From an uncultured Gemmatimonadales bacterium (lineage in GTDB: Bacteria; Gemmatimonadota; Gemmatimonadetes; Gemmatimonadales; GWC2-71-9), in assembly GCA_963695185.1 (NCBI GenBank), contig CAVOGH010000005.1, positions 1,621,504 through 1,685,503 on the forward strand: a DNA stretch of 64,000 nt, read 5' to 3'. The translations under genes were made by a program, and so were the position numbers. Shown here one piece after another: positions 837 through 30,562 of this stretch; position 1 is the stretch's first letter; each line of letters starts with the position of its first letter. Below the pieces are notes generated by a model that had not been told where the DNA came from, searched no databases, and worked only from the letters and a program-made list of their open reading frames with translations.

Positions 837-2180
837 TCAGGCCACTTCGCGCCCCTCCCGGGCGGCCTCGGTCAGCTCCTGCCGGCCCATCCTGACCCCG
901 ATGGACTCCAGGAAGGCGTTCGGCGGGGTGCCGCCGGCAAAGACCCAGACGAAGTCGTTGGGCAGCTCCCGGTGGCCCCCAGGCACCTCGAGCGTGACGC
1001 TGTCCGGACGGATCTCGGAGGGCTGGGAGTTGAACAGCACCTCCAGCAGCCCCTTCCGCATGAACTCCCTGATCCGCTGGTCGTTGCGCTGCTTGAGGCG
1101 GGAGAAGACGTCCTTCCGGTAGGACAGGGTCACCTTGTTGCGCCGGTCGTGGGCCAGCCCCATGGCCGCTTCCACCGCGCTGTCTCCTCCGCCGACGATG
1201 AGGATCCGCTGGTCGCGATAGGCCTCCGCGTCCAGGAGGCTGTACATCACCTTGGGGAGCTCCTCCCCGGGGACGCCGAGCTTGCGCGGGGTCCCCCGGC
1301 GCCCGATGGCGAGGATCACGCTCAAGGCCCGGTAACGACCGGCCGTGGTGGTGATTGTGAAGGCATCATCAGGTTCCTTCTGGATGGCCTCCACCCGTTC
1401 CCGGGTCCGGACCTTGAGCCCCGCTTTCTTCGCGTGGCCCGCTGCCAGAACGCGAGCAGTTCCTCCTTGCCGATCTCGAGCTTGTTGAACTTCCCGCTCA
1501 GCGGAAACTCCACCGGGCTGGTCATGACCAGCTTCTGGCGCGGGTACTTGGCAACGGTACCACCGAGGTCCTCGGCCTCGAGCGTCAGGTAGCTCAGCCC
1601 CCGCTCCACCGCCCGCAGTGACGCCGACAGGCCGGCCGGACCCGCCCCGACGATGCACACATCCACGACCTCTCCCACCCGCCGCCGGCGCAGCGCCGGC
1701 AGCCGGCCGGCCAGCAGGTCCACGCAGTCGCGGCCCTGGTTGACGGCGTTCTTGATGAGGGCCAGCCCGCCCAGCTCTCCGACCACGAAGAGATTGCCGA
1801 GGTTGGTCTCGAGCTCGGGCGTAAGCGCCGGCAGGTCGGCACTCATGCTGGGCGGGCGCCATGACGATCTCGATGGCGCCCACCGGGCAGGCATCGGCGC
1901 AGAGCCCGTGGCCGATGCACTTCTCCGGCTGGACCAGGGCGGCCTTGCCGCCCAGCACCGCGAGCACCTCCCCCTCCGGGCAGACGCTCACGCAGGCGCC
2001 ACAGCCGATGCACCAGGTGACATCGATGTGCGGATGCTGGGCCTGGGGGCCGGTGGTCACCAGCTTGGCGTGCTCGGCGGAGATCCGGGCCTTCCGCTCC
2101 CGCCGGCGGAAGCCACGGATCTGCACGACGAGGGAAGCCGCGAGCAGGAGGCCGAAGGCCAGATAGAGCATGCTGTCCAT
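837..2180 (-). CDS. membrane-anchored 2x[4Fe-4S] ferredoxin domain fused to FAD/NAD(P) pyridine-nucleotide-disulfide oxidoreductase; at least 2 frameshifts
   Basis: N-terminal TM helix, then CIGCGACVSVCP and CIGHGLCADACP motifs. ORF 1322..1894 supplies the dinucleotide-binding motif VCIVGAGPAGLSA. The C-terminal part has ILIVGGGDSAVEAA. Confidence 0.7.
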   Translation of the reverse strand: MDSMLYLAFGLLLAASLVVQIRGFRRRERKARISAEHAKLVTTGPQAQHPHIDVTWCIGCGACVSVCPEGEVLAVLGGKAALVQPEKCIGHGLCADACPVGAIEIVMAPAQHECRPAGAYARARDQPRQSLRGRRAGRAGPHQERRQPGPRLRGPAGRPAAGAAPAAGGRGRGCVHRRGGSGRPVGVTAGGGAGAELPDARGRGPRWYRCQVPAPEAGHDQPGGVSAEREVQQARDRQGGTARVLAAGHAKKAGLKVRTRERVEAIQKEPDDAFTITTTAGRYRALSVILAIGRRGTPRKLGVPGEELPKVMYSLLDAEAYRDQRILIVGGGDSAVEAAMGLAHDRRNKVTLSYRKDVFSRLKQRNDQRIREFMRKGLLEVLFNSQPSEIRPDSVTLEVPGGHRELPNDFVWVFAGGTPPNAFLESIGVRMGRQELTEAAREGREVA

Positions 2181-2408
2181 GAGCGTCCTTCATCGGTGTG
2201 CATCGGATCGTTGCAGCTGCAACGCAATGGACCAACAGCCTGGAACGCGTCGTGCGCGCTCTCACATCTTCAAACACCTGTCGACAATAGAATGACTTAC
2301 GCCATCGTGCGCTGTGCCGAATCGCACCGAACTGCTTCTTGCAGTGTGCAGGCGCCGTGCCGCAGTGGCATCGCACATTGGCGAGTCGACCCTCATTCCC
2401 GATACGAC

Positions 2409-3391
2409 ATGTCCCAGATGCAGCAATCAACCGCCCGCAAGAGTTCGCCGTCCATTGCGGCGGGCACACACCCAGTCGCTCAGGATCGGCGGGCCGGCGC
2501 GGCCGCGGCCCCGGCGCGCCCGGGACCGCTCCCTCCGCGGCGTCTCCGCTCGACCATCGGGCTGACGCTGCTGGGCACCTTCGCCGGGCGCGGGGTACTA
2601 CTTCGCCCCGATGGCCGAGCGGGTGCGCTCGCCCCTGCATCCCTGGCTCCGGCCCTCGGGCTACGTGGGGCAGTCGGCCGGGATCCTGGCGCTGCTGATC
2701 TTCCTCTTCCTCTGGCTCTATCCGCTGAGGAAGCGGTTCCGCCGGCTGGCCTTTACCGGCTCCATGGCCCGCTGGCTGGACGTGCACGTGGCGCTGGCGC
2801 TGGTCCTCCCGTTCATCGGCGCCATCCACGCCAGCTGGCGGTTCGAGGGGATCATCGGGCTGGGATTCCTCTCCATGATGATCGTCTGGGCCAGCGGCAT
2901 CGCCGGCCGATACCTCTACGTCCACATCCCCCGCAGCGCGAGCGGCCTCGAGTTGAGCGCCGAGGAGATCGCGGAGGAGCGCCGGGGCCTGCTCGAGGAG
3001 CTCGCCGGGGTGTGCGGGCTGCCGGTCGGCACAGGTCGAGTCCCTGCTCCGCTCCGATCCGTCGCCCTGTGAAGGGCTGGGCTTCGGGCAGACCGCGGTC
3101 CGGATGGTCCGGGACGACGTGGACCGCTGGCGGGCGGCCCGGCGGCTGCGGCGGGTCTGCGCCGAGCGCACTGGGCGGCGGGCGGACTGGACCGGCGACG
3201 CCTGGGCCGGGTGCTGGCACTGGCCCGCCGGGAGATGTCGCTGACCCAGCAGGCCCGGATGCTGGAGGCCGTCCCACCGGATCTTCCGCTTCTGGCACGT
3301 GGTCCATCGCCCGTTCGCGGTCACCGCCCTGGCCGCCGTGCTGGTGCACGTCGGCGTGGTGGTGGCCATGGGCGCGACCTGGTTCTGGTGA
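2409..3391 (+). CDS. polytopic membrane protein with His in TM helices (function unknown); about 4 frameshifts
   Basis: Pieces from ORFs 1653..3524, 2611..3072 and 3211.. give hydrophobic helices, e.g. GILALLIFLFLWLYPL, HVALALVLPFIGAIHASW and FRFWHVVHRPFAVTALAAVLVHVGVVV. The stop TGA at 3389..3391 overlaps the next gene's GTG. Confidence 0.45.
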
Positions 3392-5420
3392 GCGCGTGCC
3401 CCGTCTCGGGAATCCTCCTCATGCTCCTGACCTGCCTCGCGGCCGCACCCCTTCAGGGCCAGATCTCCCCGGGACCCCTGGCCCGGGCCCACCGGACCCT
3501 CGAGGGGACGCGCCAACTGCGTGAAGTGCCACAGCGGAGGCCGCAACGCGCTGTCCGCGCAGTGCGCGTCCTGTCACCGGGACATCGGCTGGCTGGCCGA
3601 GCGGGAGCGCGGCTATCACGGAACCGCGGCGGTCCGGGCCCAGACCTGCGCCAGCTGCCACCCCGATCATGCCGGGAGCCGGCATTCGAGCTGGTGAAGT
3701 GGCCGGAGGGAAGCCCGGAACGGTTCGACCATCGCCGCGCCGGCTGGCCGCTGGAGCAGAGCCACGCCGACGCAAAGTGCGAGCGACTGCCACACCGCGC
3801 AATTCCAGGTAGGGCCCGGCCCGCGCACTGGCGGCCGGGCACGCAGGGCGGTCACTGGACCGGGCTGGAGTCGGGCTGCGCCAGCTGCCACGAGGACATC
3901 CACCGGGGCGCGCTGGGCGCCGACTGCCGTCAGTGCCACGATGCCGGGCGCTGGAAGGTGACGCCCGGGCTTCCGGCACGATACCACCAGCTATCCGCTG
4001 ACGGACAAGCATCGGCACCGTGGCCTGCGACAAGTGCCACCTCACCGCCGCGCTGGCCACCAAACGAGACCCCGCCGGCCATCCCGATTCCGGTCTATCG
4101 CCCGGTGCCACATCGGTCCTGCGCCAGCTGCCACCGGGACCCGCACGCGGGCCGCCTGGGTGAGTCCTGCACCGGGTGCCACACCACCCGAAGCTTCCAG
4201 GAGATCAACCGCGACAACTTCGATCACGACCGCACCCGGTACCCGCTGAAGGGCAAGCACGCCACGACGAAGTGCGCCGCCTGCCACGGCGACTTCTCCA
4301 CCGTGGCTCAGAAGAAGCCGGCCTACGCCACCTGCGCCAGCTGTCACGCCGACGCCCACAACAAGACCGGGACAGCTGGCGGGACAGGTCGAAGACTGCG
4401 GCACCTGCCACACCCTGGACGGCTTCTCCCCGGCCCGCCTGAGCCTGAGCACAGCATGCGCGGACCGCCTACCCGCTGGAGGGCAAGCACGCGCAGGTCC
4501 GCTGCGCCGCCTGCCACGGCAAGACGACCGGCACGCAGGCGGCGCGCTGGGGCAACGCCACGGGTGGTCCTGCAGCCCGCCTCGGCCACGTGCCGGTCCT
4601 GCCATGCCGACGATCACGGCACCCAGCTGGCCACCCGGCCCGATCGGGGAGAGTGCTCCGACCTGTCACACGCTGGCGGGGTGGACGCCCAGCCGATTCG
4701 ATGCCCAGGCCCACGCCCGGCTCAAGCTGCCGCTCGACGGCCGCCATGCGGAGGTTGGGTGCGCGGCCTGCCATGGGCCGTCGCGGCCCGGCCTGCCGCC
4801 GCTGGCCACCGGCCCCGCCATTGGCCGCGCGCAGTTCACCTTCCGGATCGCCGAGGTGGAGTGTGCCGCGTGCCACCAGGACCCTCACAGGTCGCGGTAT
4901 GCACCTGGGGGTGCCCTGCCAGTGGCGGGTGGCTGCGCCGCCTGCCACGACGCGCGGCAGTTCCGGCCCGCCAACGTCGCGGTCGCAGGCGCATGCCGAC
5001 TACGGCTTTGCGCTGGAGGGCGCCCACGGCGCCACGCCCGTGTGGCGGCTGCCACAAGGCCATCACCGCCACCGGAGCGCAGCCGCCCGGCCCTGCTGCG
5101 GCAGGCGGCGGTCCGACCGCTGGTGCTCGAGTCCACCCGCACCTGCGGCGAATGCCACAAGACGCCCCACGGCAGCCAGTTCGACTCGCGAGCCGATCGG
5201 CGGCCGCTGCGAGTCCTGCCACGGTACCGATCGCTTCAAGCCGGCGGACCGCTTCAACCACGACCGCGATGCCAGCTTCCGGCTCGGCGGCGGCCACGAG
5301 CGGGTGCCCTGCAATCGCTGCCACCCCACCGACGCGCCCGATGCCGGCGCTTCCCAGTTGCGATACCGCCCAGTCTCCGGCAAGTGCGAAAGCTGCCACG
5401 CCGGCAAGGAGGTCCGATGA
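3388..5420 (+). CDS. very large multihaem c-type cytochrome (~23 CxxCH by hand count), heavily frameshifted
   Basis: Signal-like N-terminus SGILLMLLTCLAAAPLQG. CxxCH motifs recur every ~25-30 codons but are spread over all three + frames (ORFs 3211.., 4590.., 4604..). Ends ...CESCHAGKEVR, stop at 5418..5420. Confidence 0.7.
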
Positions 5421-6667
5421 GAAACGCTCTGTGCGTCGCGCTGCTGCTCCTGTCGCCGGCCGGGCTCGCCGGTCAGGAGCGCACCCGATCTCCTCACGGC
5501 GAGCTGAGTGTCGCCTGCAACGTCTGTCACCGATCGGATAGCTGGACGGCGGTCCGAGTCGGCGGCAGCGGCGGATTTGACCACGGCCGGACGGGGATGC
5601 CGCTCACCGGCGCCCACGCCTCGGCCAGCTGCCGAGGCTGTCACGAGTCGCTCGACTTCAAGGGAACGGCAAGCACCTGTGCCAGCTGCCACCAGGACAC
5701 CCACCTCGGCGAACTCGGCGCCGACTGCAGCCAGTGCCACTCCACCCGGAGCTTCCTGGATCCCGGCGTCATGACCCGAGCGCATCAGCTCACCCGGTTC
5801 CCGCTGGTCGGCGCCCATCGAGCCGCCGACTGCACCGCGTGCCACTGCGCCCGCCGCCCAGGGACAGTTCCAGTTTGTCGGCCGGGCAACCGACTGCCTG
5901 AGCTGCCACCAGGCGGATTACCAGGGGGCCAGGGACCCCGATCACGCCGGCGGGGGATTCCCGACCGACTGCGCCCAGTGCCATGCCGTCACCGGTGGAA
6001 CCAGGCGCGGTTCAATCACGACCAGGCGGGCTTCCCGCTCACCGGCGCCCATCGGGCCACGCCCTGTGACCAGTGCCACGTCAACAGCCGCTTCACCGGC
6101 ACGCCGTCGGCCTGCGCCAGCTGCCACCAGGCCGACTACGACGGCACGACCGATCCGAACCACGCACAGGCCCAGTTCTCCACCGACTGCGTCGCCTGCC
6201 ACAGTACCACGTCCTGGAGCGGTGCCGCGTTCAATCATGCCCTGAGCGACTTTCCGCTCACCGGGGCACACCGCACCACGCCCTGCGACCAGTGCCATAC
6301 CAGCAACCGCTACACCGGCACCCCGACCGATTGTGCGGCCTGCCACCAGCAGGCCTACGACCAGACCAGCAACCCGGCCCACCAGCCGGCGGGCTTCCCG
6401 ACCGACTGCGCCTCGTGCCACACCACGACGCGCTGGGAGGGGGCCACCTTCGATCACGACGCACGCTTCTTCCGGATCTACAGCGGGAAGCACCGGAACG
6501 AATGGTCCAATTGCGCCACCTGCCACACGGAGGCCGCGGACTTCACCCAGTTCACCTGCCTGACGTGCCACGAGCACAACCAGACCAAGATGAACGACAC
6601 CCACAAGGGCAGGCAGGGATACCAGTACCTCAGCACGGAGTGCCTGCGATGCCATCCCCGGGTGTGA
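5417..6667 (+). CDS. 16-haem c-type cytochrome (doubled-CxxCH / cytochrome c7-like repeats)
   Basis: MRNALCVALLLLSPAGLAGQ signal. Sixteen CxxCH motifs counted. The ATG overlaps the upstream stop (ATGA). Two compensating frameshifts lie at about 5835-6000. Confidence 0.85.
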   Translation: MRNALCVALLLLSPAGLAGQERTRSPHGELSVACNVCHRSDSWTAVRVGGSGGFDHGRTGMPLTGAHASASCRGCHESLDFKGTASTCASCHQDTHLGELGADCSQCHSTRSFLDPGVMTRAHQLTRFPLVGAHRAADCTACHCARRPGTVPVCRPGNRLPELPPGGLPGGQGPRSRRRGIPDRLRPVPCRHRWNQARFNHDQAGFPLTGAHRATPCDQCHVNSRFTGTPSACASCHQADYDGTTDPNHAQAQFSTDCVACHSTTSWSGAAFNHALSDFPLTGAHRTTPCDQCHTSNRYTGTPTDCAACHQQAYDQTSNPAHQPAGFPTDCASCHTTTRWEGATFDHDARFFRIYSGKHRNEWSNCATCHTEAADFTQFTCLTCHEHNQTKMNDTHKGRQGYQYLSTECLRCHPRV

Positions 6668-15926: not shown

Positions 15927-18269
15927 ATGAGACGGGTCGATCGGAGGACGTTCCTCAAGGGGGTCGGAGTGGTCTCCGCGGCGACGGCCGCCTCGGCGGT
16001 GGTCCCGGGCATGGCGCTCCCGGCAACGAGCCCGGCCTTGCCGGGCGAGTCCGGCACCGCCTGGCACAAGACGCCCTGTCGTCTCTGCGGGGTGGGGTGT
16101 GGCCTCCTGGTCGGGATCCAGAACGGACGGGCGGTAGCCGTGAAGGGGGATCCCGACTCGCCGGTGAGCAGGGGATTGGCCTGCGTGAAGGGCTACAACT
16201 CGGTGCATGCCCTCTACGGGGCCGATCGGCTCACGCGGGCCAAGGTACGACGGGATGGTGTGCTGGTCGAGGTGCCGCTGAGCGAGGCGCTCGACCTGGT
16301 GGCGCGCAAGCTCCGCGACACGGCCCAGCGGCATGGCAAGAACAGCGTGGCGGTCTACGGCTCGGCCCAGTGGACCATCCCGGACGCCTATATCGCCTCG
16401 AAGCTGTTCAAGGGCGCGCTGGGGACCAATAACGTGGAGACCAGCACACGCCTGTACGCCGCCAGTGGCATGGCAGGCCTCCAGACCAGCTTCGGTCTCG
16501 ATGGCACGATCGGCTGCTACGAGGACATCGAGCACGCCGACTTCTTTGTGTTGTGGGACATCAACCTGGCCGAAACCGACCCTGTGCTGTTCTCCCGCAT
16601 GCTGGACCGCAAGCGGGCCAACCCGGCGGTTCGCATCATCGATATCGCCACCCGTACCACCCGCACCAGTTACGCCTGTGATCACTCGCTGCTGCACGCG
16701 CCGCACGCGGGGCCGGCCATCGCCAATGGGGTCTGCCACGAGATCGTGGCGCGGAAGTGGGCACAGCGCGAGTTCCTCGATCAGCACGTCGCATTCAAGC
16801 GCGGCAGGACCAACATCGGCGACGGTCTCGCCGACGATGCCCTCCTCGCGGACGAGGCCACCGACGCCACCTGGAACGAGTACGTCGCCTTCCTGGCCGA
16901 CTACCAGCCGGAGCGCGCCCAGGAGCTGTGCGGCATGTCGGCGGCCAGCATCCGCTGGCTGGCGTCGCTCTACGGCGACCCGTTGCGCAAGGTGATGTCC
17001 CTCTGGGGTCAGGAGGTGAACCAGGATGTGCGCGGCACCTGGATGAACAACCTGCTCTACAACATTCATCTGCTGGTGGGCAAGGTCGCGACCCCGGGCA
17101 ACAGCCCCCTCTGCCTCACCGGGCAGCCCGGCGGCGGCAGCGGGGTGCACGATGCCGGCAGCCTGACCCACACGCTGCCCCGTGGGTTCGTGCAGAAGGA
17201 GGAGGACCGCCGCCGGGCCGCCGACATCTGGGGCGTACCGGCGGAGACCATCGACCCCCAGCCCACCGGCCCGGCGCTCTCGATGTTTCGCCGGCTGGAA
17301 CGGGGCGATATCCGGTTCCTCTGGATCTCGGCCACCGATCCGATGGTCAGCCTCCCCAACCTGGACCGCTACCGCCGTGCGGCGCGCAGCGGGGACCGCT
17401 TCATCGTCGTCTCGGAAGCCTACCCGACGCCCACGACGGACGTGGCGGACGTCGTTCTTCCCGCGGCGATGTGGCTGGAACGCGAGGGCATCTACGCCAA
17501 CGCGGAACGGCGCCTGCAGCACTTCGCGCGGATCGTGACGCCCCCCGGGGACGCGACCAGCGACGCCTGGCAGATGATCGAGGTCGCCCGACGGCTCGGT
17601 TTCGAGAAGCTCTTCCCCTTCGATTCCCGCCGTCACGTCGAGCAGATCTGGGAGGAGTACGGCCGCTTCCACCGGGAGCCACCCAGCGCGCTCCCGCCCC
17701 TCGCCGAACTGCGCGCCCAGCCGGGGGTGCTGTGGCCGTATGCGGCAGGCCGGGGAACCCGGTGGCGCTACAACGCCGCGCAGGACCCCGCGGCCGACGG
17801 TTCCCGAGGTGCCTTCGACTTCTACGGCCACCCGGACCACCGCGCGTGGATCTGGCTCCGCCCCTACGAGCCCCCGGCGGAGTCGCCAGACCGGGAGTAT
17901 CCGGTGTGGCTCACGACCGGCGCCGTGCTGGAACAATGGGGCACGGGCTCGATGACCCAGCGCATCCCGACGCTGCACCGCGCCCTGCCCCATGCATATG
18001 TCGAGATCAACAAGGACGACGCTCGCGACCTGGGCGTCCGGAATCGCGAGGCCGTCCGGCTGCTGAGCCGGCGCGGCTCGATCGAGCTCGAGGCCCGTAT
18101 CGACTATCGCTCTCAGCCGCCCCGCGGCCAGGTCTTCGTCCCCTCGTTCGATGAGGCGCGGCCGGTGAATCGGCTCACCCTGGACGCCTGCTGTCCGCTG
18201 TCGGGGCAGCCCGATGGCGGCAAGTGTGCGGTGCGGGTGGAGCGGCTGCCGGGCCGGGGCGGCCCGTGA
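15927..18269 (+). CDS. NapA-like periplasmic molybdopterin (bis-PGD) oxidoreductase with non-canonical Mo-ligand position
   Basis: Tat motif RRTFLKG and CRLCGVGCG...C 4Fe-4S motif. Collinear by eye with E. coli NapA along its full length. RHCMAS is replaced by RLYAAS. Intact 780 codons. Confidence 0.9.
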   Translation: MRRVDRRTFLKGVGVVSAATAASAVVPGMALPATSPALPGESGTAWHKTPCRLCGVGCGLLVGIQNGRAVAVKGDPDSPVSRGLACVKGYNSVHALYGADRLTRAKVRRDGVLVEVPLSEALDLVARKLRDTAQRHGKNSVAVYGSAQWTIPDAYIASKLFKGALGTNNVETSTRLYAASGMAGLQTSFGLDGTIGCYEDIEHADFFVLWDINLAETDPVLFSRMLDRKRANPAVRIIDIATRTTRTSYACDHSLLHAPHAGPAIANGVCHEIVARKWAQREFLDQHVAFKRGRTNIGDGLADDALLADEATDATWNEYVAFLADYQPERAQELCGMSAASIRWLASLYGDPLRKVMSLWGQEVNQDVRGTWMNNLLYNIHLLVGKVATPGNSPLCLTGQPGGGSGVHDAGSLTHTLPRGFVQKEEDRRRAADIWGVPAETIDPQPTGPALSMFRRLERGDIRFLWISATDPMVSLPNLDRYRRAARSGDRFIVVSEAYPTPTTDVADVVLPAAMWLEREGIYANAERRLQHFARIVTPPGDATSDAWQMIEVARRLGFEKLFPFDSRRHVEQIWEEYGRFHREPPSALPPLAELRAQPGVLWPYAAGRGTRWRYNAAQDPAADGSRGAFDFYGHPDHRAWIWLRPYEPPAESPDREYPVWLTTGAVLEQWGTGSMTQRIPTLHRALPHAYVEINKDDARDLGVRNREAVRLLSRRGSIELEARIDYRSQPPRGQVFVPSFDEARPVNRLTLDACCPLSGQPDGGKCAVRVERLPGRGGP

Positions 18270-19075
18270 GTGGCGACCGGCACCCGACGGCGGTCGCGCT
18301 GGGACTCTTCCTGGCGGCGGCCGCCGCCACGGCGGTGGCCGCGGGGAGCGTAGCGCTGAAACGCGGCGCCCAAGCGCGGGCGCGGGCGCCCGTGCTCGTC
18401 CCGGTCGGCATCGTGGCCGCGCCGGAGGAGCCGATCCATGCGGAGGCGCAGGTGTTCCGTACCACCCCCGCGATGCTGGCGCTGGTACCCGCGACTCGCC
18501 GGGAACGCTCGGCCCACCCGCGCACCCTGAAGACGGTACGCTTCCTCCGCGCCTATGAGGGCGCGCCCCCACGCATCCCGCACCCCCTCACGGCCGACGA
18601 GTTCCGCACCGACGCCTGCCGGACGTGTCATGAGCGTGGTGGCTACTCGGTGCGCTTCTCCGCGTACGTGCCGCTGACGCCGCACCCGGAACGCGGCATC
18701 TGTCTCCAGTGCCATGTGGGCGAGGACGCCGTCCTGGGCGTGGCCGAAGCCAGCAGGAATCCCAACTCCCGGTGTCCGCTCTGTCACGGGCCCAGCGGCG
18801 GCCCGGTCCGGGCCGCCGCCTCGGCGACGTGGCCGACGACGGTCTGGCCAAGGCTCTCCCCGAAGACACCGGACCGCGCCCCTCCGCCGGTCCCGCACGA
18901 CCTGCAGTACCGGCAGAACTGCCTCACCTGCCATGCCGGCCCCGCGGCCGTCGCCGAGATCCGCACCACTCACCCGGAGCGGGCCAACTGCCGCCAGTGC
19001 CATGTCCTGCTGGATCCGGAAGCAGAGGCCTTTGTTCGTCCCGCGGGAGTGGTCGCCTACGGAGATGCACCATGA
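18266..19075 (+). CDS. membrane-anchored pentahaem cytochrome with two NapB-like modules
   Basis: The GTG overlaps the napA-like stop (GTGA). It has a TM helix and five CxxCH motifs. Two modules match the NapB signature: PPRIPH...CRTCH...CLQCH and PPPVPH...CLTCH...CRQCH. Confidence 0.75.
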   Translation: MSGDRHPTAVALGLFLAAAAATAVAAGSVALKRGAQARARAPVLVPVGIVAAPEEPIHAEAQVFRTTPAMLALVPATRRERSAHPRTLKTVRFLRAYEGAPPRIPHPLTADEFRTDACRTCHERGGYSVRFSAYVPLTPHPERGICLQCHVGEDAVLGVAEASRNPNSRCPLCHGPSGGPVRAAASATWPTTVWPRLSPKTPDRAPPPVPHDLQYRQNCLTCHAGPAAVAEIRTTHPERANCRQCHVLLDPEAEAFVRPAGVVAYGDAP

Positions 19076-19797
19076 ACCAGACACTGTACGGGAGCGCCGT
19101 GGTGTGCGTTGCAGCGGCATGGCTGGTCTCCAGTTGCCGTCCGACCGACCCGGCGCATGGAAGTCCCGCGCCGGGGGAGACGGTCGCGGTGACGATCGAC
19201 TCGGCGACCGCGGCCCGGAACGCGACCCTTGAGCCCGGCGCGCTCGCGACCGTGCCCGCGGTCCCGGTCGAACGCTGGAAGGGACCGGGCGAGCGCCCCT
19301 TCGAGGTGGCTCTTCGGAGTGCCGTTCCCGAGGCCGGACACGCGCGCATGTTCGGCACCATCACGCTGCCGATCGCGCTCCGCAGCCGCACGGCTGCCAT
19401 CAACCAGTATCCCTGCACGTCCTGCCACCTCGGCCGGAAGGTGATCATGGCCAACCGCCGGATCGGCGATGCCCACAACAACATCCAGCCGGTGCACCCG
19501 GAACAGACCGGGGCCGTGTGTTCGACCTGCCACTCGGACGGCGACGTGGCGCTGCTGACCCTCAAGGGCGGGGAGCGGGCGACGCTGGATGAAAGCTACC
19601 GGCTGTGCGCGCAGTGTCATTTCCCGGAGGCGAAGACGTGGGCGGGCGGGGCGCACGGGAAGCGACTCGATGGCTGGCAGGGACGGCGAGTCGTGATGGC
19701 CTGCACCGACTGCCACGACCCGCACATGCCCGCGGTCGAGGTGCGCATCCCCTTCCGCGCGCCGGAACTCGAGCGCAGCCGCGGTGGCAGCCGATGA
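19072..19797 (+). CDS. tetrahaem c-type cytochrome lipoprotein
   Basis: ATGA overlap with the upstream stop. Lipobox LVSSC. Haem motifs CTSCH, CSTCH, CAQCH and CTDCH. Confidence 0.8.
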   Translation: MNQTLYGSAVVCVAAAWLVSSCRPTDPAHGSPAPGETVAVTIDSATAARNATLEPGALATVPAVPVERWKGPGERPFEVALRSAVPEAGHARMFGTITLPIALRSRTAAINQYPCTSCHLGRKVIMANRRIGDAHNNIQPVHPEQTGAVCSTCHSDGDVALLTLKGGERATLDESYRLCAQCHFPEAKTWAGGAHGKRLDGWQGRRVVMACTDCHDPHMPAVEVRIPFRAPELERSRGGSR

Positions 19798-20772
19798 CGG
19801 CCGAGCGATCACCCGGCGAGCCGACCGGCGCCGGAGACGCCAGCCTCCTGCAGAAGTGCGTCGACCGGCGCGGGGCACTGGGCATCCTCGCCGGGGGCAT
19901 GGCCGCCGGGATGCAGGCGGTGAGCGCGTGTACACCGCTCAGCGCCGAGACGGACGAGGAGCGCGAAGTCAAGCTCCTGGCCTGGCGGGAGTACATCAAG
20001 GGCAACTACCGCTTCATGACGGAGGCCGAGCGAGCGGAGACGATCGCCCGCCTCGAGCGCCTCGCCCAGCTGCAGCACGGCGTGGACGTTTCCATCCAGT
20101 CCACCGGCGCCCAGCCCGGCGTGGTGTTCGGCTACGCCTTCAACATCTCGAAGTGCAAGGGGTTCCGTCGCTGCATCGAAGCCTGCATCAACGAAAACAA
20201 CCTCGACCGCAATGCCGACACCCAGTACATCCGGATCTTCGAGATCGAGGACGGCAACGTGGATCTCGACGAGGGGGACGCGACCTTCCAGCACGAGGTG
20301 CCGGCGGAGGGCCACTTCTACCTGGGAACCCAGTGCTTCCAGTGCGCCAACCCGCCCTGCGTGAAGGTCTGCCCCGTCGGCGCCACCTGGCAGGAGCCCG
20401 ACGGCATCACGGTCGTCGACTACGACTGGTGCATCGGATGCCGCTACTGCATGGCCGCCTGCCCCTACTGGGCCCGGCGCTTCAACTGGGGCGATCCCGA
20501 GGTGCCGCCGGAGGAGGTCAACCCCAACCAGCACTACCTGGGGAATCGCGCCCGCATGAAGGGACGGGTCGAGAAGTGCACCTTCTGCATCCATCGCACC
20601 CGGCAGGGCCGCCTGCCCGGCCTGCGCCGAGGCGTGCCCCACCGGGGCGCGGGTCTTCGGCAACCTGCTGGATCCCGACTCGGAGATCCGGTGGGTGCTC
20701 GCCAACAAGCGGGTGTTCCGGCTGAAAGTGGATCTGAAGACCGAGCCGCGCTTCTGGTACTTCAGCGATTGA
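19794..20772 (+). CDS. NrfC/DmsB-type 4x[4Fe-4S] protein, copy 1; one frameshift near 20618
   Basis: ATGA overlap with the upstream stop. Tat-like DRRGALGILAGG. Four Cys clusters (CKGFRRCIEAC, CFQCANPPCVKVCP, CIGCRYCMAACP, CTFC...ACAEACP). Confidence 0.85.
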
Positions 20773-20779
20773 GGTAACG

Positions 20780-22069
20780 GTGCATCTGCGGCCTTTCCTC
20801 GCGAACGCCCTGGAGTCGGCCACCAACGGTGGCCGGCGCTACCACCTGTGGATGGCACTGCTCACGCTGATCATGCTCGTCGGCGCCTATGCGTACTCGG
20901 TCCAGTGGCGGTATGGACTCAGCGTCACCGGTATGAACGACCATGTGAGCTGGGGGCTCTACATCTCCAACTTCACGTTCCTGGTCGGGCTGGCCGCCGC
21001 CGCGATGATGCTGGTCCTGCCGGCGTACATCCTGGAGGACGTGGATTTCGGCCGGGCCGTGCTCATGGCGGAAGCCGTCGCCGTGGCCGCGCTGGTCATG
21101 TGTCTCGGCTTTGTGGTCGTGGATCTGGGCAACCCGCTGGGGTCCTGGCACCTGACGCCCGGCATCGGCTATCTCAACTGGCCCCGGTCGCTCCTGGCCT
21201 GGGACGTGATCGTGCTGAACGGCTACCTGGCGCTCAACCTGGCCATCCCGTTCTACATCCTCTACACCCGCTATGCCGGCCGCTCGCCGGCCAAGCACAA
21301 GTACCTGCCGTGGATGTACATCTCCGCGATGTGGGCGGTGAGCATTCACCTGGTCACGGCGTTTCTCCTGGCGGGGCTGCCGTCCCGGCCATTCTGGAAC
21401 ACGGCGCTGCTGGGACCCCGCTTCCTGGCCTCGGCCTTCACCGCCGGCCCGGCATTCGTGATCCTCCTCCTGTATTTCATCCGGCGGACCACGAGGTATC
21501 CCATCACCGACGGCGCGTTCGCCAAACTGGCCCTGATCACGACCGTCGCCTCGCAGGTCAACATCATGATGCTGATCTCCGAGTTGTTCTACAAGTTCTA
21601 CTCCCCGACGCATCACGGCATCAACGCCAAGTATCTCTTCTTCGGGCTGGGCGAGCACCACGCGCTGGTCCCGTGGATCTGGACCGGGATCGGGCTGAGC
21701 ATCGTGGCCACGATCATCCTCATGATGCATCCCCTGCGGCGCGATCCCCGCTGGCTGATGCCGGCCTGTGCCATGCTGTTTGTCGGGATCTGGATCGAGA
21801 AGGGGATCGGCCTGGTGGTGCCCGGCTTCATCCCCTCGCCCCTGGGAGAGATCGTCGAGTACACCCCGACCTGGGTGGAGCTGTGCGTGACCGCCGGGGT
21901 CTGGGCGCTGGGCCTGTTCGTCCTGACCATCCTGGTGCGGGTCGCCCTGCCGATCGAGCTGGGGGACGTGCGAAGCCCGTACCTGGAAGCCCCGCCGCCC
22001 GCCCGGGGCCTCCGCCCGCGCGCCGTCCGCGCCCGGTATGAGGACATCCGGCCGGTCCGGAAACGCTGA
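20780..22069 (+). CDS. NrfD/PsrC-family polytopic quinol-interacting membrane subunit, copy 1
   Basis: Intact 429 codons with about 10 hydrophobic helices, 8 nt after nrfC-like copy 1. Family call made from overall pattern. Confidence 0.8.
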   Translation: MHLRPFLANALESATNGGRRYHLWMALLTLIMLVGAYAYSVQWRYGLSVTGMNDHVSWGLYISNFTFLVGLAAAAMMLVLPAYILEDVDFGRAVLMAEAVAVAALVMCLGFVVVDLGNPLGSWHLTPGIGYLNWPRSLLAWDVIVLNGYLALNLAIPFYILYTRYAGRSPAKHKYLPWMYISAMWAVSIHLVTAFLLAGLPSRPFWNTALLGPRFLASAFTAGPAFVILLLYFIRRTTRYPITDGAFAKLALITTVASQVNIMMLISELFYKFYSPTHHGINAKYLFFGLGEHHALVPWIWTGIGLSIVATIILMMHPLRRDPRWLMPACAMLFVGIWIEKGIGLVVPGFIPSPLGEIVEYTPTWVELCVTAGVWALGLFVLTILVRVALPIELGDVRSPYLEAPPPARGLRPRAVRARYEDIRPVRKR

Positions 22070-22121
22070 TTGCGACCGCCGGCGCCGCGCCGGCTGACTT
22101 TTCTTCTGCGAGGTAAGACAC

Positions 22122-23097
22122 ATGACCAGACATCGGCCCAACGACACCCGGTATTCGTTCGCCGCTCTCGCCGCCGGGCTGGTGGGGGCGGCCGGGCTGG
22201 CGGGCGGACTGTTCCTCGCGGGCATCGCCCGCCCGGTCGCGGCCGTGGCGGGCCTGGCCCTGGGCGTGCTGCTCGCCGCCTCGATCAAGTACACGGACCA
22301 GTGGGAGAAGGCCGTCGTGCTGCGGCTGGGCCGGTACCAGGGCCTGCGCGGTCCCGGCTCTTCGGCGTCGTGCCGATCATCGACCGGGTGAGCTACCACA
22401 TCGACCAGCGGATCCGGACGACCGCGTTCGGCGCCGAGTCGTGCCTGACGCGGGACACGGTGCCGGTGAACGTGGATGCCATCGCGTTCTGGATCGTGCG
22501 CGACGCCGAGCGGGCGGCGCTCGAGGTGCAGGACTACGAGCAGGCCGTCATGCTCGCCGGCGCAGACCGCGCTCCGCGACGCCATCGGCAAGCACGACCT
22601 GGCGGAGCTGATCCAGTCGCGCGAGGAGCTCGGCCACGGGCTCGAAGATGGCGCTGGACCAGAAGATGCACGACTGGGGGATCCAGGTGCAGTCGGTGGA
22701 GATCCGCGACGTCATCATCCCGGAGGCGCTCGAGGACGCCATGTCCCGCCAGGCGCAGGCGGAGCGGGAGCGGCAGGCGCGCATCATCCTCGGCACCGCC
22801 GAGACGGAGATCGCCTCACAAGTTCGTCGAGGCGGCGAACGGCTACCGCGACCACCCGGTCGCCATGAACCTGCGCGCCATGAACATGCTGTACGAGAGC
22901 ATCGTGAAGCGGGGCTCGCTCATGGTGGTGCCGTCGGGGCTGGCCGACTCGCTCAACGTCCCCTCCATGATGGGCATGATGGGCGCCGGCGGCCTGGTGC
23001 CGCGAGACGGCGAGGGCCGCGCGGCCCTTACGCATGGCGGCGAGGGTGCCGGACCGGCAAGGGGACGGCCCCGCATGTGGCCAGTGAAGCACCCTAG
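22122..23097 (+). CDS. SPFH/band-7 (stomatin-like) membrane protein, copy 1; about 4 frameshifts
   Basis: TM helix followed by YTDQWEKAVVLRLGRY..., VDAIAFWIV and QAERERQARII. The tail GKGTAPHVASEAP in the frame of ORF 22648..23097 parallels the copy 2 tail GHGKEPEVTGRK. Confidence 0.75.
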
Positions 23098-23211
23098 GGA
23101 CCGCCGGCCGCGAGGCAGGCGGCCCCGCTTGCCGAGCGTCAGGCTGGCGCGGCATCCAGCCGCGAATGCCCTACGGGCGCCGGGACTCGAACGAACCAGG
23201 AGCCCTGACCG

Positions 23212-24192
23212 ATGAGCACGAGCCGCACACCGAGGTGCCCGACAGCGCCGATGACGGCACGGTGCTGCAGAAACGGGTCGATCGGCGCGAAGGCGATGGG
23301 CCTCCTGCTGGGCGGGCGTGGCCACCGGCGCGGCCGCGGTAAGCGCGTGTACGCCGCTCTCTGCGGCGACGCCCGAAGAGCGCGAACTGAAGCTGCTCGA
23401 ATGGCAGCAGTTCTTTCAGAAGCACTATCGCCGCATGACCGCGGAGGAGCGTGCCGAGACCGTCCAGCGGCTCGAGCGGCTGGCCAAGCTCCACCACGAT
23501 CAGGACGTCACCATCGCCACATCTGACGCCATACCCGGAGTGCTCTTCGGTTATGCCTTCAACATCTCGAAGTGCAAGGGGTACCGGCGCTGTGTCGAGG
23601 CCTGCATCAATGAAAACAACCTCGACCGGGAAGCCGACACGCAGTACATCCGGATCTTCGAAAAGGAAAGTGGTGTTGTCGATCTCAACCACGCGGACGC
23701 GACCTACCAGCACGAAGTGCCGGCGGAGGGCCACTTCTATATCGGGACCCAGTGCTTCCAGTGCGCCAACCCGCCCTGCGTTCCGGTCTGCCCGGTGGGC
23801 GCCACCTGGCAGGAGCCCGACGGCATCGTGGTCATCGACTACAACTGGTGCGTTGGATGCCGCGCCTGCATGGCCGCCTGCCCCTACTGGGCCCGGCGCT
23901 TCAACTGGGACGTGCCCGAAGTGCCCCTGCAGGAGGTCAACCCCGACCAGCATTACCTCGGGAATCGCGCCCGCAAACAGGGCTGCACCGAGAAGTGCAC
24001 GTTCTGCATCCATCGCACCCGGCAGGGCCGTCTGCCGGCGTGCGTCGGAGGCGTGCCCCACCGGGGCGCGGATCTTCGGCAACCTGCTGGATCCCGATTC
24101 CGAGATCCGCTGGGTGCTGGCCAACAAGCCGGTCTTCCGCCTGAAGGAAGGATTGCGGGACGGAACCGCGCTTCTGGTACTTCACCGACTGA
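23212..24192 (+). CDS. NrfC/DmsB-type 4x[4Fe-4S] protein, copy 2; about 4 frameshifts
   Basis: ORF 23318..24241 is collinear with copy 1 and has the same four Cys clusters. The N-terminus (MSTSRTP.. / TVLQKRVDRR / KAMGLLLGG) is split over three frames. Another shift lies near 24047. Confidence 0.75.
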
Positions 24193-24199
24193 GGCGATC

Positions 24200-25496
24200 A
24201 TGCACCTCAGAGCCTTCCTCGTGAGTGCGCTGGGGCGGTGACCTCAGGCGGACCGCCGCTACCACCTCTGGATGGGCGGGCTGACGGCCATCATGCTCCT
24301 CGGGGGCTACGCGTACTTCGTTCAGGTCACCGACGGGCTCGGCGTCACGGGCATGAACGACCACGTGAGCTGGGGGTTGTACATCTCCAACATGGCGTTC
24401 CTCGTCGGGGTCGCGGCCGCGGCGGTGATCCTGGTGATGCCGGCATACGTCCTGCACGACGTCGACTTCAGCAAGGCGGTGCTCATCGCGGAGGGGGTCG
24501 CGGTCTCCGCCCTGGTCATGTGCCTCGGCGTTCGTCATGGCCAACAGCCCCGGCCTCCCGTTGCAAGTGGTGGCGCCTCACACCGGTCGTCGGACTGCTG
24601 AACTGGCCCGACTCGATGCTGGCGTGGGACGTGATCGCCCTGAACGGCTACCTGGTGCTGAACCTCGCCATCCCGTTCTACATCCTCTACAGCCACTATG
24701 TCGGGCGGGAGCCGGCGAAGCACAAGTACGTGCCCTTCATCTACCTGTCGGTCGCGTGGGCGGTGAGCATTCACCTCATCACCGCGTTCCTCTTCGCCGC
24801 CCCGCCGGCGCGGCCCCTGTGGAACTCGCCGCTGCTCGGTCCCCGTTTCCTGGCCTCGGCCTTCACGGCCGGGCCCGCCTTCATGATCCTGCTGCTCGGG
24901 TTCATCAGGTCCAACAGCCGTTACCCGATTTCGGACGTGGCGATCAGCCAAGCTGGCCACCGTCACCACCGTCGCTGCGCAGATCAACCTGGTGATGCTC
25001 TTTTCCGACCTGGTGTTCGAGTTTCGCTTTCCCGACGCATCACAGCCTGAGCGCCCGGTATCTCTTCTTCGGCCTGGGCGAGCACCACGCGCTGGTCCCG
25101 TGGATCAGGACGGCGATCGCGCTCAACGTCACCGCCACGGTCATCCTCATGATGCATCCCCTGCGGCGCATCCCGCGCTGGTTGATGCCGGCCTGCGCCA
25201 TGCTGTTTGTCGGGATCTGGATCGAGAAGGGGATCGGCCTGGTCATTCCCGGCTTCATCCCGTCGCCCCTGGGGGAGATCGTCGAGTACACCCCGACCTG
25301 GGTGGAGCTGTGCGTGACCGCGGGCATCTGGGCGCTGGGCCTGTTCGTCCTGACCATCCTGGTGCGGGTCGCCCTGCCGATCGAACTGGGGGACGTGCGA
25401 AGCCCGTACCTGGAAGCCCCGCCGCCCGCCCGGGGCCTCCGCCCGCGCGCCGTCCGCGCCCGGTATGAGGACATCCGGCCGGTCCGGAAACGCTGA
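24200..25496 (+). CDS. NrfD/PsrC-family membrane subunit, copy 2; at least 4 frameshifts
   Basis: Pieces in ORFs 24272.., 24238.., 24992.. and 25149..25496 are collinear with copy 1. The last ~60 codons are identical to copy 1. Confidence 0.7.
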
Positions 25497-25548
25497 TTGC
25501 GACCGCCGGCGCCGCGCCGGCTGACTTTTCTTCTGCGAGGTAAGACAC

Positions 25549-26475
25549 ATGACCAGACATCGGCCCAACGACACCCGGTATTCGTTCGCCGCTCTCGCCG
25601 CCGGGCTGGTGGGGGCGGCCGGGCTGGCGGGCGGACTGTTCCTCGCGGGCATCGCCCCCCCGGTCGCGGCCGTGGCGGGCCTGGCCCTGGGCGTGCTGCT
25701 CGCCGCCTCGATCAAGTACACCGACCAGTGGGAGAAAGCCGTCCTCCTGCGGCTGGGCCGCTACCGGGGCCTGCGCGGTCCCGGCTACTTCGGCATCGTG
25801 CCGATCATCGACCGGGTGGCCTACACCATCGATCAGCGGATCCGGACCGCGGCGTTCGGCGCCGAATCGTGCCTGACCCGGGACACGGTGCCGGTGAACG
25901 TCGATGCCATCGCGTTCTGGATCGTGCGCGACGCCGAGCGGGCGGCGCTGGAGGTGCAGGACTACGACGAGGCAGTCATTCTCTCGGCCCAGACCGCCCT
26001 CCGCGACGCCATCGGCAAGCACGACCTGGCCGAGCTGATCCAGTCGCGCGTGGAGCTCGGCCATGGGCTCGAGATGGCGCTGGAGCAGAAGATGACGAAC
26101 TGGGGCATCCACGTGCAGTCGGTGGAGATCCGCGACGTCATCATCCCCGCCGCCCTCGAGGACGCCATGTCCCGGCAGGCGCAGGCCGAACGGGAACGGC
26201 AGGCCCGCATCATCCTCGGCACAGCCGAGACGGAGATCGCCCACAAGTTCGTCGAGGCGGCCGCCGCCTACCGCGACCACCCCGAAGCCATGAACCTGCG
26301 GGCCATGAACATGCTGTACGAGAGCATCGTCAAGCGGGGCTCGCTCATGGTGGTGCCGTCGGGCCTGGCCGACTCGCTGAACGTCCGCTCGGTGATGGGA
26401 GCCGTGGGGAATACGGCGCTGCTGCCGCCGGTGGCAGGGCATGGCAAGGAGCCGGAGGTGACCGGCCGAAAGTAG
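25549..26475 (+). CDS. SPFH/band-7 (stomatin-like) membrane protein, copy 2
   Basis: Intact 308 codons with the same 52-nt spacer after nrfD-like as in copy 1. Confidence 0.85.
   Translation: MTRHRPNDTRYSFAALAAGLVGAAGLAGGLFLAGIAPPVAAVAGLALGVLLAASIKYTDQWEKAVLLRLGRYRGLRGPGYFGIVPIIDRVAYTIDQRIRTAAFGAESCLTRDTVPVNVDAIAFWIVRDAERAALEVQDYDEAVILSAQTALRDAIGKHDLAELIQSRVELGHGLEMALEQKMTNWGIHVQSVEIRDVIIPAALEDAMSRQAQAERERQARIILGTAETEIAHKFVEAAAAYRDHPEAMNLRAMNMLYESIVKRGSLMVVPSGLADSLNVRSVMGAVGNTALLPPVAGHGKEPEVTGRK

Positions 26476-28620: not shown

Positions 28621-30562
<1,942 letters not shown>

Follow-up and report, generated by a model that had tools for sequence, protein, structure and literature searches.

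What does a protein of the NapA nitrate reductase family do once the cysteine that ligates its molybdenum (Mo) is gone? The question is raised by one gene in a stretch of 64,000 nucleotides from an uncultured Gemmatimonadales bacterium (contig CAVOGH010000005.1; "the window" refers to this whole stretch). The original prediction, made from the letters of the window alone, placed a tyrosine on the Mo-coordinating Cys of E. coli NapA (EcNapA). We find that this substitution defines a monophyletic clade, and we propose that the protein is probably a NapA-derived pseudo-enzyme, an analogue of QrcB or ActB that has no cofactor and serves as a subunit of an electron-transfer complex in the membrane. 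The gene and the loop in question are the following:

15927..18269 (+), intact gene for a NapA-like protein of 780 amino acids (aa), probably Mo-cofactor-free, member of the Tyr clade (open reading frame (ORF), Pfam, PDB match)
16449..16469 (+), former Mo-ligand loop, RLYAAS in place of R(L/H)CMAS, with Tyr177 encoded at 16455..16457 (alignment, clade columns)

The gene is a single intact ORF, as originally read, with an ATG at 15927 (MRRVDRRTFLKG...), a stop at 18267..18269 and no frameshift. Its product contains the Pfam domains Molybdop_Fe4S4, Molybdopterin and Molydop_binding and a weak TAT_signal, and it is 40-47% identical to canonical NapA over the full length. A phmmer search of all PDB chains returned NapA as the best match (3ml1, E=5.8e-185; E. 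coli 2nya, E=6.1e-180). Residues 141-243 align with residues 107-209 of 2nya in a gap-free HMMER block that lays RLYAAS on RHCMAS; codon 177 (TAC, 16455..16457) is Tyr177, which pairs with the Mo-ligand Cys of EcNapA (mature Cys143, UniProt Cys179). The E. coli stretch used for the first alignment is the 2nya sequence, and the gap-free alignment to solved NapA structures reproduces both the Cys to Tyr exchange and the replacement of MDEP by LDGT. Next to the ligand, Met has become Ala; Cys-Met is present throughout the sister clade described below. His to Leu was dropped as a sign of divergence because Leu is common in canonical enzymes, RLCMAS being the commonest form of the loop among canonical NapA, Nas and Fdh representatives.

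Cys occupies the ligand column in 104/104 full-length Cys-type NapA, Nas and Fdh representatives. Among 125 close homologues of the window protein, fragments included, we found Tyr in 113, Phe in six, His in three and Thr, Gln and Ala in one each; in a second sample of the clade, Tyr was present in 35 of 46. Conservation of Tyr across orthologues, which had been put forward as a check, thus holds for the majority and fails for the rest: the position is chemically unconstrained in the clade. The window protein also fails both NapA equivalog cut-offs of NCBIfam (NF010055, 739.6 bits against a cut-off of 904; TIGR01706, 722 bits against 930.55). L053, a Cys-bearing relative from the sister clade, passes the first with 933.5 bits and scores 905.7 bits on the second.

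The best 120 database clusters (74-100% identity) all carry the ligand change, many of them under the IMG label "nitrate reductase NapA". In a scan of one genome per species, we collected 80 loci and read their key columns by tblastn. The columns split the loci cleanly in two. Loci of the Tyr clade (66-84% identity) come from Gemmatimonadales, Gemmatimonadaceae and Gemmatimonas metagenome-assembled genomes and carry Y, F, H or A in column 177, with Phe in L002, L016, L019 and L070 and Ala in L043, L045 and L046. Loci of the Cys sister clade (56-67% identity) come from Longimicrobiales and other Gemmatimonadota, Rokubacteria, Archangiaceae, Desulfobulbales and Saprospiraceae; examples are L053, L064 and L067 (Gemmatimonadota), L087 (Rokubacteria), L078 and L083 (Saprospiraceae) and, within L079-L085, Desulfobulbales and other deltaproteobacteria. 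Every sister sequence has Cys-Met and every other canonical key residue, without exception. In a tree made by neighbor-joining only and rooted on classical NapA, the 46 non-Cys sequences are monophyletic and sister to the 25 Cys sequences, and Tyr has changed to His, Phe or Ala several times inside the clade, sometimes independently. With more than 100 Gemmatimonadales and Gemmatimonadaceae sequences, the Tyr clade is a large group of soil Gemmatimonadales. A sequencing error at codon 177 is ruled out by the recurrence of the change in more than 100 independent assemblies, which agrees with the initial view of a diverged motif rather than a single-base error.

Non-Cys residues at the ligand column were also seen on unrelated NapA/Nas/Fdh branches, in proteins P0265 (894 aa, Fdh-like, RLYSAS), P0249 (RLSMAS), P0264 (RLGMAS) and P0270. 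Loss or exchange of the ligand may have occurred several times over in this superfamily.

Is the ligand the only residue of the Mo site that has been lost? After full realignment, we compared the proteins at 84 columns with at least 85% conservation among 79 diverse Cys-type representatives of NapA, Nas and Fdh. The reference representatives differ from the consensus at 5.5 +/- 4.2 of these columns and the Cys sister clade at 8.1 (range 7-9), compared with 20.2 (range 17-24) for the Tyr clade and 21 for the window protein. Twelve losses are specific to the clade; their form in the window is N81S, C177Y, G211D, H218D, D262G, G363E, G405S, R408H, N471D, R666A, H672G and K765G. The changed segments are located as follows:

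16497..16508 (+), LDGT in place of (M/L)DEP; the channel Asp is kept and Glu has become Gly193 (alignment, clade columns)
16554..16583 (+), pterin patch 1 (EcNapA 212-219 plus HP), WDINLAETDP in place of WG(S/A)NMAEMHP (gap-free block, PMC13223375)
16695..16718 (+), HAPHAGPA in place of FxP(Q/G)(T/S)DLA; the conserved Asp of a PGTD-type motif (column 262) is lost (alignment)
17112..17159 (+), active-site loop, CLTGQPGGGSGVHDAG in place of SLTGQPSACGTAREVG (alignment, clade columns)
17916..17951 (+), pterin patch 2 (EcNapA 718-729), TGAVLEQWGTGS in place of TGRVLEHWH(T/S)GS (alignment, PMC13223375)
18219..18221 (+), column 765, where the superfamily Lys (FKKCAV) is Gly in the window (clade columns)

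In patch 1, Gly213 of EcNapA has become Asp211 and His220 has become Asp218, with Trp, Asn and Glu unchanged. The lost Asp of column 262 is one that we take to be a nucleotide-ribose binder in the family. In patch 2, Arg720 has become Ala, His724 has become Gln (a patch residue outside the 12-column set) and His726 has become Gly. The pterin hydrogen-bonding residues named for EcNapA are Gly213, Asn215 and Glu218 in the first patch and Arg720, Val721, His724, Trp725 and His726 in the second (PMC13223375). The window protein has Asp, Asn and Glu and then Ala, Val, Gln, Trp and Gly at these eight positions, so that four of the eight, the Arg and both His among them, are lost. The active site has been altered as well. 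Residues lining the substrate channel of D. desulfuricans NapA (DdNapA) are Arg354, which lies above the catalytic pocket, Asp155, Glu156 and Asp355 (PMC13223375); their counterparts in the window are His408, Asp192, Gly193 and Asp409. Within the active-site loop, the Arg that corresponds to DdNapA Arg354 is thus His408 (N, Q, E, S or A in some clade members), Glu has become Asp409 and Ala-Cys-Gly has become Gly-Gly-Ser, and Gln400 is unchanged.

The lost columns have had two fates. Five are now variable (262, A/E/G/T/S/V; 363, E/D/N/S/G/Q; 405, S/C/G/A/N; 666, A/P/V/S/T/G; 765, S/G/T/A/R/P), and we regard this variability as the signature of relaxed constraint. Other changes (G211D, H218D, E193G, H672G and E409D) have been re-fixed in the clade; G211D, H218D and E409D are among the type II substitutions fixed at 96-100%, and His408 stands at 83%. 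When the 370 columns with at least 96% conservation among the sister sequences were followed into the Tyr clade, 241 were unchanged, 15 had a new conserved residue and 114 were relaxed to some degree. With symmetric thresholds, the comparison of sister with Tyr clade gave 49 columns, against 16 in the reverse direction.

The gene for the NapD chaperone is missing alongside the residues. By tblastn, 24 of 26 Cys sister loci have a NapD-like ORF immediately 5' of napA (28-39% identity among the homologues detected); its Pfam NapD match (1.2e-5, 25.8 bits) falls just below the gathering cut-off of 28. The same search found no napD at about 60 Tyr-clade loci, each covered over +/-10 kb, nor anywhere in the 64-kb window, and no other maturation chaperone was seen in the Tyr-clade operon. 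P0124, the classical NapA closest to the window protein (46% identity), is encoded in a napA-G-H-D operon.

Features outside the Mo site have been retained. The Tat (twin-arginine translocation) signal and the N-terminal cluster site, both noted at the outset, are present at these positions:

15939..15959 (+), twin-arginine motif DRRTFLK (residues 5-11) of the Tat signal (Pfam, clade columns)
16077..16190 (+), site of the [4Fe-4S] cluster (FS0), Cys51, Cys54, Cys58 and Cys86, together with Lys88 (clade columns)

The Pfam TAT_signal match (E=4.4e-4, 20.5 bits) is below the gathering cut-off of 22.7; R6, R7 and F9 of the motif are invariant in 50 clade members. Of 117-123 clade sequences, 116-123 conserve the FS0 Cys columns, and K88 is kept by 122 of 123; Tyr90, just 3' of the site, is nearly invariant. 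Lys88 corresponds to Lys56 in the numbering of the C. necator and R. sphaeroides enzymes, the bridge between FS0 and the pterin, and Tyr90 to Tyr58, which faces haem II of NapB (PMC13223375). The ratio of non-synonymous to synonymous substitution rates (dN/dS) is 0.11-0.23 within the Tyr clade, compared with 0.07-0.12 in the sister clade. Such values indicate purifying selection with modest relaxation; the Tyr-clade gene is not a pseudogene and is not decaying.

The window gene is followed by four genes that are conserved with it:

18266..19075 (+), cytA, pentahaem cytochrome c of 269 aa with five CxxCH motifs, conserved in Tyr and Cys clades
19072..19797 (+), cytB, tetrahaem cytochrome c of 241 aa with four CxxCH motifs, conserved in Tyr and Cys clades
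19794..20772 (+), FeS1, four-cluster ferredoxin-like iron-sulfur (FeS) subunit of the ActB2/DsrO/QrcC type (Pfam Fer4_11, PDB)
20780..22069 (+), NrfD1, integral membrane quinone-interacting subunit of 429 aa, ActC/DsrP/QrcD type (Pfam, PDB)

The GTG start of cytA overlaps the stop of the napA-like gene (GTGA), and the ATG of cytB overlaps the stop of cytA (ATGA). CytA has a membrane anchor at its N terminus and a region with weak likeness to NapB, and CytB has a lipoprotein-like signal (LVSSC); searches of PDB gave no informative matches for either cytochrome and no detectable similarity to ActA. The best PDB match of FeS1 is ActB of Alternative Complex III (ACIII; 6f0k_B, 2.6e-21), and NrfD1 matches Pfam NrfD (1.3e-30) and ActC (6f0k_C, 3.8e-11) and has about ten hydrophobic segments in a rough hydropathy scan. 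By their NCBIfam scores, the FeS and NrfD subunits are DsrO/DsrP- and QrcC/QrcD-like; against a DsrO cut-off of 200 bits, the FeS orthologue at locus L001 reaches 192. Across the Tyr clade the operon is conserved; it was seen in L001, L002 and L006 and at about 50 other loci. The Cys sister clade has the same operon, in the order napD-napA-cytA-cytB-FeS-NrfD.

Judged by its sequence, the window protein descends from NapA, yet by its ligand, both model cut-offs, its pterin residues, its active-site Arg and the state of napD it is no NapA. The existence of a sister clade with Cys and the same operon makes the case interpretable. The ancestor would have been the catalytic subunit of an unusual Nap system composed of napD, napA, cytochromes with five and four haems, a four-cluster FeS protein and NrfD. 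Systems of this type, with a complete Mo site, persist in Longimicrobiales, other Gemmatimonadota, Rokubacteria, Desulfobulbales, Saprospiraceae and others. The site for the Mo-bis(pyranopterin guanine dinucleotide) cofactor (Mo-bisPGD) would have been abandoned once, on the branch to one Gemmatimonadales/Gemmatimonadaceae clade. Lost together on that branch were the ligand Cys, the Arg for the substrate, several residues that contact the pterin and the chaperone NapD. The protein would have been kept as a Tat-exported, [4Fe-4S]-bearing subunit beside a NapB-like cytochrome, presumably with neither Mo nor PGD. Because the subunit inventory resembles those of Qrc and ACIII, we propose that the complex is a quinol:cytochrome c (or cytochrome c:quinone) oxidoreductase, in which electrons would pass between the quinone pool, at the NrfD/FeS module, and the nine haems; here we infer also the direction of flow and the physiological partner. 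The NapA-like subunit would act as a structural element or as a side-branch carrier of FS0, with no oxo-transfer chemistry. Two of its new conserved Asp residues, those of pterin patch 1, may, speculatively, compensate for the lost pyrophosphate charges.

How does this complex compare with known ones? With structurally characterized NapA (E. coli 2NYA, C. necator 3ML1, R. sphaeroides 1OGY, D. desulfuricans 2NAP), the window protein shares the four domains, the Tat signal, the Cys residues of the [4Fe-4S] cluster and the Lys and Tyr of the electron entry path. It differs from them by the absence of the Mo-ligand Cys and the active-site Arg and by the replacement of four of the eight named pterin residues, and its operon lacks the napD, napG, napH and napC of NapA systems. 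The Cys sister clade is much closer: the order of its operon and its two cytochromes, with five and four haems, are the same, and its proteins are 52-74% (FeS), 56-76% (NrfD) and 56-67% (NapA) identical to those of the window. The sister differs in keeping the canonical active-site and pterin residues and in having napD directly upstream. NrfD-type proteins of the ActC/DsrP/QrcD group are known to occur with non-standard "catalytic" subunits, among them the cofactor-less QrcB and ActB (Duarte et al. 2018, PMC6303296). QrcB, from the QrcABCD menaquinone reductase of sulfate reducers, is a homologue of Mo/W-bisPGD subunits that lacks the cofactor, and its partners, a multihaem cytochrome c anchored in the membrane, an FeS protein with four clusters and a protein of the NrfD type, form an inventory like that of the window (PMC6303296). 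The two proteins are not orthologous (67.3 bits on the QrcB model NF041783, cut-off 440): the window protein appears to have an independent and much more recent origin, from NapA, and is accompanied by two cytochromes (5 + 4 haems). Absence of the cofactor is proven for QrcB; for the window protein we infer it.

The pentahaem ActA of ACIII is likewise a cytochrome with a membrane anchor. In ACIII (6F0K, 6BTM, 6LOD), the C-terminal part of ActB and ActC are the best PDB matches of the window FeS and NrfD subunits, and this complex, too, holds a cofactor-less bisPGD-like module (PMC6303296). Unlike that module of ActB, the bisPGD-like protein of the window is encoded by a separate gene, unfused to the FeS subunit, and equivalents of ActD, ActE and ActF were not identified in the window operon. 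Since the QrcB model is failed and the genes are unfused, the likeness to Qrc and ACIII is an analogy of independent origin rather than membership.

Several observations weigh against an empty pocket. Asn213, Glu216, Trp210, Gln400, Lys88 and the GNxERR region (N525, R528), all near the cofactor site and conserved in canonical enzymes, are almost invariant in the clade too, which would be unexpected if the pocket were simply vacant. Asp211, Asp218, His408 and Asp409 are strongly conserved replacements and could reflect a new function of the pocket rather than mere loss, and napD could lie elsewhere in the Tyr-clade genomes. In a rough count by hand, the strictly relaxed columns amounted to about 22% of those in the two pterin patches and about 17% of the conserved columns overall; we regarded such enrichment as weak and did not use it as evidence. 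An AlphaFold2 model of the window protein built with 49 close homologues was too poor for the pocket to be read (mean predicted local distance difference test score (pLDDT) 47.5, predicted template-modeling score (pTM) 0.36). In one reading, which we consider unlikely, Mo (or W)-bisPGD is still bound, with no protein ligand, in a pocket remodelled by His408, Asp409, Asp211, Asp218 and Tyr177 to a new substrate specificity, and the complex is a terminal reductase or substrate oxidase wired to the quinone pool. The preserved four-domain architecture and 40-47% identity to canonical NapA, the retention of FS0, Lys88, Gln400, Asn213, Glu216 and Trp210/Trp671, the conservation of the replacements His408, Asp409, Asp211 and Asp218 themselves and purifying selection would all suit it. 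The loss of Arg720, His724 and His726 and the change of Gly213 to Asp in the pterin patches argue the other way, as do the loss of the column-262 Asp, Lys765 and others, which have become variable instead of being re-fixed, the absence of napD from the operon of every clade member examined, with no other chaperone seen there, and the variation of His408 (N, Q, E, S, A). The precedent for such a site is arsenite oxidase (Aio), which retains bis-molybdopterin guanine dinucleotide (bis-MGD), carries a [3Fe-4S] cluster and has a Rieske partner subunit. The window protein resembles its subunit AioA in having no Cys, Ser, Asp or selenocysteine at the ligand position; however, it has four FS0 Cys residues and eroded pterin contacts, no Rieske gene was found in the operon, and AioA is a remote match (E about 1e-10 to 1e-11 in PDB; TIGR02693, 98 bits against a cut-off of 359).

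The same conserved replacements would allow the cavity to have been rebuilt as another site, for a mononuclear Fe, Mn or other metal or a small molecule, fed by FS0 and endowed with a new catalytic activity. Asp211, Asp218, His408 and Asp409, with or without Tyr177, would be its ligands. Fixation of G211D, H218D and E409D at 96-100% and of His408 at 83%, the retained FS0 and electron-entry residues and purifying selection fit this idea. His408 and Tyr177 vary, however, and the new acidic residues may equally replace the negative charge of the lost pyrophosphates; we hold a rebuilt site to be improbable. Either novelty, a new redox site in the vacated pocket, wired to the [4Fe-4S] cluster and the nine haems and with a chemistry new for the bisPGD fold, or a Mo-bisPGD that has no protein ligand and whose substrate is not nitrate, is a prospect that we regard as doubtful. 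Phe and Ala are unable to ligate a metal. They nevertheless occur at the ligand column in otherwise intact close relatives with the same operon; His, Thr and Gln are found at the column too. On the Phe and Ala variants we rejected Tyr as a Mo ligand as the leading idea. Direct phenolate coordination of Mo by Tyr177, which would be a new type in the bisPGD superfamily, accords with the Tyr majority in both samples of the column, but the column is unconstrained, the active-site Arg, pterin residues, other conserved residues and napD were lost on the same branch, and all the evidence for erosion of the cofactor site applies to it too; we consider it very improbable. Of the two readings first offered for the tyrosine, the non-catalytic scaffold is therefore favoured and the new coordination disfavoured. 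As for an artefact, whether a codon error or a dying gene, indels do affect the neighbouring FeS1, Band_7a, FeS2 and NrfD2 genes (described below); with an intact ORF, the same substitutions in more than 100 independent assemblies and dN/dS of 0.11-0.23, this explanation hardly merits credence. A NapA-derived pseudo-enzyme that probably lacks its cofactor remains the reading that we prefer.

In the searchable literature, we found neither a Cys-less NapA described nor, for Gemmatimonadota, a nap operon that includes an NrfCD/DsrOP-type module. Complexes of the NrfD type were already known to contain cofactor-less relics of bisPGD proteins; the present case would add one derived from NapA whose functional sister is extant. 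From homology searches, metagenomic surveys have attributed Nap-type nitrate reduction to Gemmatimonadota (e.g., PMC11316326). If the Tyr clade cannot reduce nitrate, inferences based on napA for these soil and sediment bacteria are inflated, and a test of one column (Cys versus Tyr, Phe or His) would correct them. The relics in Qrc and ACIII originated too long ago for reconstruction. The same kind of transition seems recent here, and because the functional sister (56-67% identical, with the same operon and napD) is alive, the order of events, namely ligand loss, erosion of the pterin site, loss of the chaperone and retention of FS0, can be compared. The clade also offers a natural experiment on what a subunit of the bisPGD fold contributes to an NrfD-type complex after catalysis is gone.

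Downstream of NrfD1, the FeS-NrfD module is extended by a Band_7 gene and repeated:

22122..23056 (+), Band_7/SPFH (HflK-like) gene a, split over three reading frames
23345..26475 (+), second copy of the module: FeS2 (about 23345-24189), NrfD2 (24200-25490) and Band_7 b (25549..26475)

The tandem duplication of FeS-NrfD-Band_7 is found in the window (19794..26475), L001/L010, L002, L015 and L024, and is intact in L001 (13874..20647) and L002 (13880..20421); the module is single in L009, L021 and L048. Among the Cys sister loci, Band_7 was seen in L052 only. FeS1 of the window has a frameshift near 20630, so that its last 45 residues, including the CAEAC cluster motif, lie in another frame (20600..20772). 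The shifted tail matches orthologues at 84%, and the called frame continues to 20777 with unrelated sequence. FeS2 and NrfD2 each have several frameshifts, and Band_7 b is intact. Compared with the intact L001 orthologues, Band_7a, FeS2 and NrfD2 (22122..25490) are each in three to four frame pieces, amounting to about seven indels in 3.3 kb, versus one in the 6 kb upstream. These breaks reflect either assembly indel errors or decay of the duplicated module.

NrfD1 passes the NCBIfam cut-off for DsrP (403 against 350 bits) without any dsr context, and automated annotation would mis-name it. In the Cys sister clade, the FeS subunit (L053, 13858..15144) has about 100 more residues at the N terminus than that of the Tyr clade (428 vs about 325 aa). 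In L053, a multicopper oxidase gene (16457..17941, minus strand) lies directly downstream of the canonical nap-type operon. About 9-15 kb upstream of the window operon are a gene for an oxidoreductase with Fer4 and pyridine-nucleotide-disulfide domains (837..2180, minus strand) and ORFs for large multihaem cytochromes c (3211..6667, plus strand); in L001, Fer4 oxidoreductase and cytochrome genes flank the operon directly. The 837..6667 region is broken into overlapping ORFs, and more indels are likely there. Farther downstream, a GyrB-like ORF (28621..30087, 488 aa, HATPase_c and DNA_gyraseB) is short for GyrB, which suggests assembly indels.

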